A stretch of DNA of 63,877 nucleotides, the filler included, from Reticulomyxa filosa (lineage: Eukaryota > Protista > Foraminifera), in the NCBI GenBank assembly GCA_000512085.1. It is 23 parts of 23 records of this genome, joined end to end, with 100 filler letters (N's around TTAATTAATTAA, not from the genome) between each part and the next. Parts side by side here need not be neighbours in the genome. Positions count along the whole stretch, not along the records: positions 17,933 to 20,750 come from ASPP01021763.1; 22 more parts are not named here. The stretch is one strand, 5' to 3'. This document shows positions 16,061-24,583 of this stretch, piece by piece. The notes below the pieces were generated by a model. It saw only the letters and a list, made by a program, of their open reading frames with translations. It ran no database searches and was not told the DNA's origin. How positions within the stretch are numbered: position 1 is the first letter of the stretch; each line of letters begins with the position of its first letter. Made by a program: the position numbers and the translations under genes.

Positions 16061-16609
16061 TGTATATATTTTATAAAAAAATAAAAAGGCAATGACATGG
16101 CACTGAGCTCACATCCGACAGACATATGTGTGAACAGTGAAGACTTGTGGATGATACCCACAGTGGTAGGGTCCACCGTACTTGCCTTTTGTATTCTCAT
16201 GGCGTTGATCGGATATCTAACGTATAACCGCTGGTGGTACCGCGTATGGAGACGCCTGCGTAGCCAATCGATCACGATAGGCCCGTTCAAGGGACCCAAT
16301 CGAACAGAGCTTCCGCCAATGTCGTCGCCCAAAACCATCCAATTGGTGCGAGTGCCCAGTCACGTGTTGAACGCACCAATCGCGACCGAGTCGGCCAACG
16401 ACGTTCCAATCGGCGAGACGTACAGCGTGTTGCAGACCGACACAAAGCGTGAGTTTGTCATGGAACCTGGAGGCTATCGTCCGATTCAAGTACCTATGGA
16501 ATTGCATATGGCCAATAGTACCTCTTCGCCACCTATTGCGATATCAAGCAAGTCAAAGCCGGATCATCTTAGTAGCTATTATGGCAGTAACAACAACAAT
16601 AATAAAAGC

Positions 16610-16662
<53 letters not shown>

Positions 16663-17700
16663 CAACAATGAGATGGAGGAAAAATATCCATCATCAACGA
16701 CAACCAATGAAATCAAAAAAATAGACGCTAGCAAGGTAAGCAACAATGTTACAAAAACTGTACGTAGCACTGGCATGGCGGAAATCAAGTACGATGAAAT
16801 AAAAATGGATCTTCAACTTGCGCCGATTCAAAATATTGGCACTGTGTTCAAGGCACGTTGGAACGGCATGGACGTCGCTTGTAAGAAATATGCACAAGAA
16901 AACGTCGACCCCAATCGCGCCATGCAATTTGTGAAGGAAATGAATATCTTCAACCAACGCTTCAAACATCCGCATTTGGTTCAGTACTACGGCTACTGCT
17001 CCAACCCCTTTGCTCTTGTGATGGAGTATATCGAAGGCATTTCCGCTCGCGACTATCTCCAACACGACAAGCCCGAGTCCACGCAACTATCCATGTCGAC
17101 CGTGTCTTAATCGCCAAACAAGCTGCCGAAGGTATTCGCTATTTGCACCACAATGGCCTATTGCACGGAAACATTGCCGCGCGAAACTTGCTCATCAAAG
17201 ACAGATCCACCGAGCCAAAAAAAGAATTGAAAGTTATTGTCACTGACTATGGTGCTAATCGAACGTTGTACGAAGTCGTTTATTCGACTGTTTACAATAG
17301 TGGCAAAGTTTTGATTTACAAAAATTTAAATTGTCATATTTTTATATGTAAACATATACATATAAATATATATGTATTTATATACATATAGCCATTGAAA
17401 TGGATGGCACCAGAAGCGCTGTCAGACAGTAAGTTTACAAGCAAGTCAGATGTATATTCATTCGGTATAACACTATGGGAATTGCTGACTGGAAGAGAGC
17501 CTTATGAAGATGATGACCCAGTGCACACCGCATTGGACATATTGGTCAAAACAAAACGACCAAAATTGTTTGACACAATCCATCCCAAAATGCAAAAATT
17601 GTTGAAAAGATGTTGGAACACGAATCCCAGTAAAAGGCCAGAATTTTCTGAAATTATCCATGTTTTGTCCAAGTTTATTGATCGTTTACAAAAAGAATAA
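15314..17700 (+). CDS. Single-pass receptor tyrosine-kinase-like pseudokinase with a Cys-rich/SUEL-lectin-like ectodomain; frameshifted; 5' end uncertain
   Basis: Cys-rich exons (about 15320-15529 and 15651-15870), TM helix IPTVVGSTVLAFCILMALIGYLTY, poly-Asn linker. Kinase motifs DVACK, HPHLVQYYG, HGNIAARN, DYG, PLKWMAPE and SDVYSFG. Intron 17308-17391. Frame breaks at about 16105 and 17097. Confidence 0.85.
16586..16670 (+). repeat. (AAT)n/(AAC)n coding microsatellite (poly-Asn)
   Basis: Direct trinucleotide repeat. Similar tracts occur at about 5700-5760, 11000-11089 and 21595-21730. Confidence 0.9.
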
Positions 17701-18060: not shown

Positions 18061-19998
18061 ATGTCATCAGTATATGTTCTTTTAGTTGGCTCCACCGGAG
18101 TGGGGAAGTCTGCACACGTTCGGTTATTGACAGGGAATACAAGTGTGGTAGTGAGTAACGGAGCACAGTCGTGCACGACGCAGATGTCTGTGTATGCCGG
18201 CAGTGACGGCTACAACTACATTGATACTGTCGGTGCAGAGGACAGCAGAAACCTGAGCGACGCGTACGTGTTAAACCAAGCGCAAAGAGATTTGTACAAG
18301 CGCAAGGTGAAACAAGTGAAGGTGATATGGATCTCCAATCCGAACGAACGAGAGTCATCCACGATTCAGAGGCAAGCCAAATACATTGGAGCCATCGATA
18401 AAGATATTTGGAAATCGGTTTTGGTTGTTATCAGAGAGCCTGGTTTCCAACTGGAAAGCAAAGGCCAAGGCATTCAAACGGCAATTAGAGAGTATTCCAA
18501 TACAAGCGACATCATTACAGTTCCTGTTATTGGCTACTTAAACATTGATTGGGTCAAAGACTCCCCAGAGTACATTTTGCACTTAGGTTAAACATTAAAA
18601 AAAAGTATCAAACCTTTGTAACAGTAAACGATTGTATGTGTATATACATACATGTATATATTTTATTTTTTTTGGAGCCAGTATTGATGACTCCAAAAAA
18701 TACGTATGACTGAAAACAGATACAGAAACAAGAACTAAGCTTGGTTATCTCAAATCGAATGAAGTTCGGAGTCTGGTGATGAAGAAATTGAACGAGTTGC
18801 AAACAACGGAGCTCCACTTTGAAGAGAAGAAATGCAAAAATTGCAGTTTGATAGGCGATCCTCGGTTTTCGGACGACGTCAGCTGCCACTTGCTTGCAAC
18901 GAAGGTGCACAAAAACGGAGTGGAGCCAAAGCAAGTGCATTTCGGCACGAAAAAGGCAATTCATGCATCGAACTACGATTTGGAATGGTATCATCCAGAC
19001 GACTCGTTAGTTCACCCAGGAAACAAAGAAAAATTTCACGACAAATCGACTCGCACTGAAACGCAGCACAGCAAAGAAATGTATCTTGAACATGAGACGA
19101 CACAGACGAGACAAACAGTGGTTGATGTCAAACGACGACATCGAGGAACAAAGCTTGTATCCTGTTGTCCCACGAACTATTACACTTGTATCCGGCCAAG
19201 TTAAACATTTGATCTGATAATCTTAGAATTTGTTGAACATATGTCTGCACGTGCAAAAAAAAAAAATAATTACATACCTCCCCACAGAACACGGTTTTGG
19301 ATCCTTATCTTTTCTTTTTCCTTGTGGCGCCTGTAAGCAACATTTTACGCGTAATGATGCTGCGCATAGATGTGGCAATTGTAGAAAAATTATTTCATAC
19401 AACGTGTGGAAGTAACTCAGGTGTGAACATGTGCACCTATTGCAATCAACGAATCGATTCGGAGGGATGCGACTTTGAGATGGTGCATGTTGACGTCCAT
19501 ATTTGCTGTGGCAAATCTAAAGGATCCATTGGATGTTTAAGAAAATGCTCTTCTTGCAGACAAACCTTGGATAAACGTGGATGCACGAGCCAGACGTGGC
19601 ATGTATGTTGCGAAGGAGATGAAAAAAGCGAGGGCTGCTGCTACAGATGGAATTGTTGTCAAACCAATATTACTTCAACTACGAAAGGCTGCAAACTTAA
19701 ATGTTGCAGCGGAGAGCCAGGCTCAAAGGGATGCAAACAACGGTATTCGTGCTGCAAGCAACCTCTTGGCTCTGAAAAGGCATGCAAGGAAGAATGGACG
19801 TGCTGCAGCCAAATAGATCCGACTCCTGGCTGTAAGTTGCAATGGCCATGTTGCCAAGCAATCGTGTCTTTGTACAGTCCAAATGACGAAAAAAGCGCTT
19901 GTCAACAAGTTTGTAAAATTTGTGGAGGCATATGGGGCAAATCTGATGGTTGCACCAATGCGGCCAAACACGAGTTCGAAGAAAAAATTGACTCATAA
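18061..19998 (+). CDS. TRAFAC-class P-loop GTPase (AIG1/MMR_HSR1-like) with a His-repeat and Cys-repeat putative zinc-binding tail
   Basis: G1 GSTGVGKS, G2 SCT and G3 DTVG. Introns 18587-18719 and 19200-19287 both begin GTTAAACATT and both join in phase. One extra base in the A-run at about 19385. C-terminal W/Y-x-CC-x5-14-G/A-C repeats. Confidence 0.85.
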
Positions 19999-22707: not shown

Positions 22708-22827
22708 TAAGTCTTTTTTTTTTTTTTNNNNNNNNNNNNNNNNNNNNNNNNNNNNNNNNNNNNNNNNNNNNTTAATTAATTAANNNNNNNNNNNNNNNNN
22801 NNNNNNNNNNNNNNNNNNNNNNNNNNN

Positions 22828-23527
22828 TATCTTCATTATATTCAATTGATAATCCTTTCTTCATGCAAAACAACAGCATTTGATAATTTTTTATATTTTT
22901 TTCTTCATTTTTGTTTATCATTTCTTGTTCTTTTCTATTTTCTGAATTTGATATAAAGCAATGATAAACAATAATACCAGTTGGTAAAGTGCTATGCTTA
23001 ATAAATTGATATGTATTTAAATCAAACACACTAATATTATTAATTAAATAAGTGATAAATAATAAATTATTGTTGCTTCCACCAATCACTGCACGCGCTC
23101 CAATATATTTATCTTGATTTCTTCCAATGATAATTGGATGATTGTTATTGTTTATGAAAGGAATCCATTGATTATAATTATTAAATTCATTTGATTTGTT
23201 TAATATATTATTCCAAACACTTATATATTTCATCACCAATGTATGTTTATTTTTTCCATTATGAGCAGATCCAAAAGACAATAAAGTAATTTGGTTGATG
23301 TCTTTATTGTTGTTATCTACCAGTTTCACCACACAGTGTCCATGTAATTTAACATGACTTGGATAATCACAGATAAACTTGTATTCGTTTTTGATCGTAT
23401 GATAAGAATAACAAGATCTTTTGTTCCAACCTCCACAAATGAGGAGTTCGTGTTTGTATAGCACACATTGAGAGTGAGAAAGTGGAGTAGGCAACTCCTT
23501 CAAAGTTTGAAAGGTTTGATTTTTCAT
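22828..23527 (-). CDS. Kelch-like beta-propeller protein of a lineage-expanded family (3' truncated)
   Basis: FQTLKELPTPLSHSQCVLYKHELLICGG...CYSYH, HCVV and AVIGGSNNNLLFI. A decayed paralog lies at about 52500-52670. Confidence 0.75.
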
Positions 23528-24583
23528 GTTGTTGATGATAATGAACTATGAAGTAGTTAGATTTTTTTAAAAGGGGGAAGGACATGAAAAAGTCTTCATT
23601 TTAAGGTATTTGATAATCTAGTAAAAAAAAATTAAAATCAATACTCATAAACAAAGCTAATAATTACACTGACGAACGTTGTTAGTTTTCGATGATAAAA
23701 TGTGAAAACTTTTTTTAGAGTCGACAAATCAATGTTTTATCATTGTTGCATACGCATACAATTGCTGATGAGAATATAGAGTAGAAGACTTTATAACAGT
23801 ATCCTTTTTTAAAATGAGGAAAACTGTTGAGTTTAGTACAAAACAAGAGACGTGCACACAATAATAATATATCAATCAAGACATTTGCTACTTTATATTT
23901 CTTCCACATTCGACATCAGTCAACAGTCAAGACATTGGCCATTTGATTTGTTTGTATATGAATAGATTTTAGTTGTTAATTTTCCGATAATACTTTAAAA
24001 CTTCATCTCAGGGTAAAAATTATAAATTCATTGTTGCCACATAATAAAAATTTGACTTTGTAAATTATTGTCAAATGAAATAACATGAGAAAATCTTTTT
24101 TTGATATTTTTCCTGGAATGATATCCTTTTTTTAACAAAAAGGTTGAATGATACACCATAACATAATGATTGGGTTATTCTTTTCTAAATGACAAAAAGA
24201 ATACACAATACAATTTCAAAATAACACATTTTCTAATTTGTGTACAACTTTTCTCATCCCTTCTTTTCCCTTTTTAACAATTTTTAGCATTTTCAATCTT
24301 AATCTCTTGNNNNNNNNNNNNNNNNNNNNNNNNNNNNNNNNNNNNNNNNNNNNTTAATTAATTAANNNNNNNNNNNNNNNNNNNNNNNNNNNNNNNNNNN
24401 NNNNNNNNNTCAACCAACTTCACTTACTCTTTTGCTTTGTTTTCTTCTTTGGTTGCGTTATTCGTCTTTCTTTTATTTAATTTACTTTTGTTTTATCGAA
24501 CATTGGTTTCTCGAGCAAAACCATTTTCGTATTACATTTAGTACACTTCTTCCAGCTGACGTCCCACATATGTGTATATAAAC

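Follow-up and report, generated by a model that had tools for sequence, protein, structure and literature searches.

The gene at positions 18061..19998 of a 63,877 nucleotide stretch of DNA from the foraminiferan Reticulomyxa filosa (assembly GCA_000512085.1; the whole stretch, joined from 23 parts, is termed the window) raises the question of why a GTPase should carry a long run of His residues followed by a long run of three-Cys (Cys3) units. The original prediction was that the two runs form a zinc-zipped antiparallel hairpin, in which each of nine His completes a Cys3His site with one of nine Cys3 units on the returning strand. Comparison with homologs extended this to a Toc34/GIMAP-like GTPase with a CHORD-type antiparallel hairpin of 11 zinc sites, a tip docking on a membrane or target, and a GTP-dependent dimer switch, which as a whole is a reasonably probable account of the protein.

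The gene starts at ATG 18061 and codes for a G domain, a CxxC..CH knuckle, a His ladder, a C1-like tip, and a Cys3 ladder (all coordinates are on the plus strand unless stated). The basal knuckle (18833..18889), formed by C214, C217, C231, and H232, was invariant in the alignments at all four residues. It opens an outgoing ladder of ten His from H232 to H316 (18887..19141), with the later members at residues 239, 249, 257, 267, 274, 282, 292, 300, and 316. Residues 232-316 contain 10 His in 85 residues with no Cys beyond H232, compared to three His in residues 1-210. The tip (19142..19431) is followed by a returning ladder of ten Cys3 units, C384-C557 (19432..19953), residues 384-557 containing 31 Cys and three His, and by a terminal H563 in the context H-E-F (19969..19971), the predicted fourth ligand of the knuckle, before the TAA stop codon (19996..19998). 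Counting from the base, the kth His very probably binds zinc with the kth Cys3 unit from the end while C214, C217, and C231 close on H563, such that H232 is predicted to pair with C544, C547, and C557 at one end of the ladder and H316 with C384, C387, and C396 at the other. The GTPase, the CKNC..CH knuckle, the nine His, and all of the Cys units originally listed were found, and the nine proposed pairs were supported, although the predicted full count is ten rungs plus one basal site. The last unit (CKIC..GC..H) had been read as self-contained; this was rejected on the count and spacing/basal-His tests and it is better divided between rung 0 and the basal site, with H232 predicted to pair with the unit and H563 to close the knuckle.

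A phmmer search with exon 1 retrieved 180 representatives at E <= 0.001 among 1.84 billion, and the knuckle pattern was present in 64 of the best 150 of these 180, to which a profile search added 18 further proteins. Among 170 proteins, the 56 in which a P-loop, a knuckle, and a CxxC unit at the end were all present were parsed by fixed rules, and rung number in the relatives ranged from 2 to 16. The numbers of ladder His and Cys3 units rose together (r = 0.91, slope 0.94, 56 homologs), with His minus Cys3 units being -1 in one protein, 0 in 25, +1 in 17, and +2 to +4 in 13. Parser errors were kept in, including the window protein that was counted as 13 and 11 where the parser ran into the tip (10 and 10 by eye) and a few under-counted members. 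With segment length held, His had the highest partial correlation of the 20 residue types (r = 0.84), followed at a distance by Pro (0.49) and Tyr (0.36), both of which belong to the Y-H-P rung motif. When relatedness was allowed for by independent contrasts (G-domain trees, quick and FastTree, 55 proteins), r was 0.85 over 54 contrasts compared to 0.42 for segment length, and 26 of 31 informative contrasts had the same sign.

The order of pairing was addressed by spacing and charge. Gaps between His and linkers between Cys3 units, matched from the base in antiparallel order, correlated at r = 0.56 (268 pairs) compared to 0.08-0.22 at offsets of 1-2 and -0.09 in parallel order; on centred values this was reached by none of 2000 within-protein and none of 2000 rank-matched shuffles. 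The window protein itself gave r = 0.92 over nine pairs (shuffle p 0.011). For charge, 72 position pairs were compared over 217 rungs from 55 homologs, the rungs having been pre-filtered for consistent spacing and kinship ignored, and the strongest pairs were His-3/Cys3+3 (r = -0.43, best of 72) and His-2/Cys3+2 (r = -0.29), together the mirror pattern of antiparallel strands. This signal fell to between -0.10 and +0.12 at offsets, was lost in parallel order, and was negative at each of ranks 1-7, while none of 500 within-protein shuffles reached r = -0.43. Facing pairs in which both residues are charged were opposite in 49 of 52 cases and like in three. The window protein lay outside this statistic and had four of four such pairs opposite (K254/E504, E264/R487, E279/R455, and K313/E399), using both K/E and E/R polarity and including one pair at the RRH/CTYC rung. 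Parallel and shifted registers were rejected on both tests. The register that had been proposed, running from KVH with unit nine to RRH with CTYC..GC, was thus supported by spacing, by cross-strand charge pairs, and by the co-variation of His with Cys units that had been suggested as its check (r = 0.91, or 0.85 in the contrasts). Of the three outcomes originally named as refuting, none was observed, separate genes being judged from homolog proteins with no transcript of this gene available.

The closest precedent for this order is the CHORD domain (RAR1, CHORDC1, and melusin; Pfam PF04968; PDB 2xcm), which shares the nested arrangement of Cys3 with a returning His and of an outgoing His with CC..C, as well as an elongated shape. 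An excerpted account of CHORD places its zinc sites at C159/C164/C178/H218 and H181/C196/C197/C213 and gives a length of 54 Å for the two (PMC2935968). The basal site here, C214, C217, and C231 with the putative ligand H563, follows the first pattern, and an H-x-hydrophobic motif occurred at the C- or N-terminus of 52 of 56 homologs (31 had it at the C-terminus alone, 19 at the N-terminus alone, and two at both, while the other four had none), two of those classed as N-terminal only also ending in a bare His. This exchange of ends indicates that one terminus of the chain has to supply the knuckle with its fourth ligand. A clade including P0012, P0029, P0032, P0033, P0046, and relatives has lost the C-terminal His and carries H-x-F/W before the G domain; in these proteins the N-terminus would be held across the G domain by the predicted basal zinc site. 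The pattern of the second CHORD site, present once in CHORD, recurs ten times here and 2-16 times in relatives. In contrast to CHORD with its two zinc sites, a domain is inserted at the turn and the whole is fused to a GTPase, and Pfam CHORD was not matched by four window pieces (E <= 1), 20 full-length homologs (E <= 0.01), or two stalk fragments (E <= 2).

AlphaFold2 was applied to homolog P0029 (predicted local distance difference test score, pLDDT, 79) and to P0169, a natural fragment consisting of the stalk alone (pLDDT 80). In these models each arm has short strands, and confidence declines from a maximum at the base of both arms to a minimum at the tip. A VIA-align comparison of a homolog stalk model with 48,161 chains gave RAR1 CHORD2 (2xcm_F) as the sole match at Z >= 2, a weak one (Z 2.7, root-mean-square deviation 3.2, 44 residues aligned) that placed model residues 46..202 on chain residues 169..221. 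These ranges indicate a fold-back in which distant outgoing and returning segments lie in one CHORD-sized unit, consistent with the predicted register. Stalk pieces compared with PDB sequences gave nothing meaningful.

Other zinc and stalk systems were less similar. The Btk-type zinc motif of Tec kinases (Pfam PF00779) has its His and CC..C within one contiguous motif of 25-30 residues, and, like the rungs, sets an H-P strand against a strand with aromatic-x-CC-x(7-10)-GC. Its His and Cys are on one short hairpin, whereas the partners here are 70-310 residues apart, and Pfam BTK matched none of the window pieces, 20 full-length homologs, or stalk fragments. The nesting of Cys3His sites originally drawn from Btk was supported, but CHORD is a closer precedent than Btk alone as the base is predicted to close in the CHORD manner; a 2018 paper by Kaur and Subramanian (PMID 29390068) is said, from its title, to concern the relationship between CHORD and Btk. 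A contiguous Btk-type reading is possible only for H316-C324-C325-C332. The pair C324-C325 (19163-19168), which has no assigned partner, could make a local Btk-like site with H316 and C332 or, more speculatively, be a lipid-modified Cys pair. The Cys-rich zinc hairpin of DnaJ type likewise nests zinc sites on an out-and-back hairpin, but uses Cys4 CxxCxGxG sites, usually two, without a His ladder. By analogy of working, the bacterial dynamin-like protein BDLP combines a G domain, a long out-and-back stalk, and a membrane-inserting tip paddle according to an excerpted source (PMC5084822), where membrane insertion would be only a putative property of the tips here; its stalk is a hinged helical bundle in contrast to the predicted zinc-stapled beta-hairpin of variable length.

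The G domain retains intact G1, G2, and G3 motifs, namely the P-loop GSTGVGKS (18088..18111), Thr39 (18175..18177; Thr in 49 of 50 aligned homologs), and the DxxG sequence DTVG (18223..18234). Arg97 after strand 4 (18349..18351; Arg in 40 and Lys in five of the 50 homologs) is a candidate arginine finger, which may be equivalent to that of Toc/GIMAP proteins. The G4 motif of GIMAP type carries a guanine-binding Asp, whereas no Asp was conserved there among the 50 aligned homologs; the window protein has Arg125 at this position (18433..18435), and Lys occupies it in 47 of 50 with no conserved Asp next to it. The G-domain fold of the P0029 model was nearest to Toc33 (Z 15.5), an Era-like protein (14.7), and GIMAP7 (14.5), Foldseek with the same domain ranked Toc34 and GIMAP7 at the top, and GIMAP4 was the best PDB profile match. 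In contrast, exon 1 scored 13.5 bits against Pfam AIG1, under the cut-off of 27 that was reached by one of 20 homologs (P0027, 27.1); Atlas neighbours of P0027 were only generic AIG1-type clusters under 0.9 and exon 2 had no usable match in the Atlas. The AIG1/GIMAP-like assignment was thus supported by the fold, with Toc33/34 and GIMAP7 nearest, but missed the Pfam AIG1 cut-off. Where Toc and GIMAP proteins have a helical extension and a C-terminal anchor, the zinc stalk is predicted to return to the G domain instead.

The gene comprises three exons. Exon 1 (18061..18586; residues 1-175) encodes the G domain and matched Pfam MMR_HSR1 above its cut-off (E 3e-6), and exon 2 (18720..19199) encodes the last G-domain helix, the knuckle, the His ladder, and the start of the tip. 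Introns 1 (18587..18719, 133 nucleotides) and 2 (19200..19287, 88 nucleotides) agreed with those originally placed, both being GT..AG, phase 1, and AT-rich (26 and 31% GC, respectively, compared to 42-46% in exons). Seven single open reading frame homologs used as tblastn queries matched all exons in order, one of them also matching a short third-frame segment (19317-19379), and full-length entries occurred among homologs in the foraminiferan EukProt sets (Nonionella, Bolivina, and Elphidium). The GTPase and the Cys-rich part therefore belong to one gene and one protein, as had been modeled, and their being separate genes was rejected.

The spliced frame as assembled stops at 377 amino acids compared to 571 when read through with an X at a run of five A (19385..19389), where the frame changes by assembly error or lesion. 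Removal of one A at about 19385 had been proposed and the frame does change in this run, but a possible intron of 40 nucleotides (GT..CAG, 19381..19420; 33% GC, predicted only) also solves the break; splicing it would remove H372 and C375, and both ladders are intact under either reading. A hidden Markov model built from five homolog tips gave 14.8 bits for both forms. A homopolymer assembly error has about an even chance of being the cause, and the 40-nucleotide intron is a rather unlikely one. A genuine lesion that makes this copy a pseudogene, also rather unlikely, would agree with the frame ending at 377 amino acids and with the redundancy that a second copy, 96% identical, could provide; it fits poorly with a single break inside the A run, beyond which 202 codons are open and include all ten Cys3 units, and with the C1-like C-x2-C-x4-H-x2-C created by read-through, such an H-x2-C occurring in 0.4% of 200,000 shuffles of the 40-mer. 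The second copy, RFI_01593, shared 96% identity over 135 amino acids with the exon-1 fragment (P0001), differing at few residues, and its annotation covers the same fragment. With RFI_01593 included, no fewer than four R. filosa copies were noted besides this one (P0002, P0003, P0033, and P0151; RFI_36924, RFI_13310, RFI_35830, and RFI_01593), and the annotation of three is a fragment that stops at the exon-1 boundary or close to it.

The tip spans intron 2 and the frame break and consists of C324-C325 followed by C332, H337, C348, C351, C364, C367, H372, and C375, eight residues that could bind two zinc; the Cys-rich middle that had been noted is present and more exactly a C1-like zinc finger. 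The C1 consensus is H-x12-C-x2-C-x13/14-C-x2-C-x4-H-x2-C-x7-C. A relaxed form of it (x10, x12, x8) fits the read-through form only, and the Cys at the end of this pattern, C384, is already assigned to rung 9. Among four homolog finger tips, two matched Pfam C1_2 below the cut-off (E 0.011 and 0.035), with no Pfam match to a C1 domain in the window pieces. Classified by rule, 57 tips comprised 16 hydrophobic, 19 short, 18 other, and four zinc finger. An amphipathic segment resembling R-x-x-x-G-I-F-[ST]-[LF]-G-L also recurs at the tip of the distant members P0052, P0158, P0165, P0012, and P0062.

In the proposed mechanism, ten His and ten Cys3 units would zip antiparallel into ten rungs plus one basal zinc site, and the resulting rod would hold the C1-like tip an estimated ~25-30 nm from the G domain, an estimate based on the CHORD length for two zinc sites and on 84 extended residues. 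Stalk length would change by matched gain or loss of half-rungs on both strands, giving the 2-16 rungs of the relatives. The tip would dock on a membrane or target and the G domains would then form a head-to-head dimer in which Arg97 would act on the partner subunit, the arrangement of Toc34, GIMAPs, and some septins, and the role may be in membrane remodeling or cell-autonomous defense. Paraseptins, the GTPase group of Toc33/Toc34 and AIG1/GIMAP, possess arginine fingers and form G-dimers according to excerpts of two sources (PMC10996617; PMC5084822). A stalk that serves as spacer or ruler, with an exchangeable tip as the payload contacting a membrane or membrane-bound target, is a tentative proposal with slightly less than an even chance, in which the payloads might perhaps be a hydrophobic Gly-rich hairpin, an amphipathic segment, a short aromatic/basic turn, or a zinc finger; the rigid sensor arm suggested originally is tentative.

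Several observations weigh against the zipped GTPase stalk and were considered together with its rivals. His outnumbered Cys3 units in 30 of the 56 homologs, by two to four in 13, which points either to His without a ligand role or to parser mistakes. The same excess would suit Cys units that fold locally, as metallothionein-like clusters or disulfides, with the His tract as a separate element, but this is highly improbable as counts, spacings, and charges agree solely in reverse order, each unit has three Cys, and the protein begins right at the P-loop strand without a signal peptide. Without the innermost rung, the spacing correlation fell to r = 0.25 in the family (83 of 2000 shuffles) and, without its long innermost pair, to r = 0.61 (p = 0.11) in the window protein, and the filtering and disregard of kinship in the charge test count in the same direction. 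The N-terminal His form belongs to one clade and so represents one swap, not 19. To the weakness of the CHORD2 match is added the lack of any Foldseek match at E <= 0.001 for the stalk model; guanine specificity is only presumptive with a G4 that lacks Asp; only 16 of 57 tips were clearly hydrophobic, the tip of the window protein not being one of these; and this gene copy may be broken.

Two further rivals accept the stalk but give it another task. It may be a protein-binding scaffold without a membrane role, as CHORD is on Hsp90 and Sgt1, which is unlikely yet draws on the sole structural match being a protein-interaction domain, on the recurrence of Tyr and Trp on rung surfaces, and on the short turns of 19 of 57 tips. 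Against it, rung number differs between relatives from 2 to 16, as would be expected of a spacer more than of a fixed interface, 16 tips carry long hydrophobic segments, and the His188-Asp189 loop by which RAR1 contacts Hsp90 in an excerpted source (PMC2935968) had no conserved counterpart in the 57 tips on inspection. Less probable still is a zinc store or a metal or redox sensor whose loading controls the GTPase. At least 11 predicted Cys3His sites per chain would provide capacity and the N-terminal His of one clade could clamp the G domain at the basal site, but the exact antiparallel register and the cross-strand charge pairs point to a fixed structure, and the varied tips would be left unexplained.

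Named members of the family were found in foraminifera and in glomeromycote fungi (Diversispora, Rhizophagus, Entrophospora, and Paraglomus), and in each of 20 full-length members scanned the G domain was the sole part that Pfam detected. Three proteins (P0018, P0023, and P0042) keep the His and Cys3 ladders without the basal knuckle, P0018 having three of each, and P0005 and other phmmer matches of 800-4354 amino acids lack a zinc stalk but carry several related G-domain stretches. A word-index search of the G domain against longer proteins gave none among 553 candidates, a similar search with a long stalk found only itself among 388, which does not settle whether the ladder occurs on non-GTPase proteins, and P0047 had no relative among metagenome contigs. 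Searches of full-text literature outside the subscription journals listed no paper on this architecture, in line with the original impression, and the GTPase family with a zinc-zipped ladder is apparently undescribed and a variant of the CHORD principle.

The gene is alone on contig ASPP01021763.1 (17933..20750, 2818 nucleotides), which is bounded at both ends by N-run/ttaattaattaa/N-run spacers, and linkage to neighboring window genes is therefore not shown. The preceding contig carries a gene (16085-17700, plus strand) for a predicted transmembrane segment and a protein kinase domain, interrupted by an intron near 17300-17391; linkage of the GTPase gene to this kinase gene was rejected as a spacer parts the contigs. 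An open frame of 257 amino acids on the minus strand (22772-23545) presumably resembles the Kelch-repeat proteins common in R. filosa.

Databases label these proteins of foraminifera and mycorrhizal fungi just as "G domain-containing", whereas they are defined here as a GTPase family. Most repeat proteins grow head to tail, while here two distant strands have to change in step for every unit added. The repeated change between 2 and 16 rungs among relatives makes the family a natural test case for nested-repeat evolution and a candidate for a modular rod, stapled by metal, whose length can be tuned. At its widest, and with somewhat less than even confidence, the family may represent a zinc ruler with 2-16 rungs and a length of roughly 5-45 nm, in which the two halves of each nested-repeat unit lie at distant places in the sequence, and which would carry interchangeable membrane-inserting or sensing tips on a dynamin-like machine, likely for defense or membrane remodeling.
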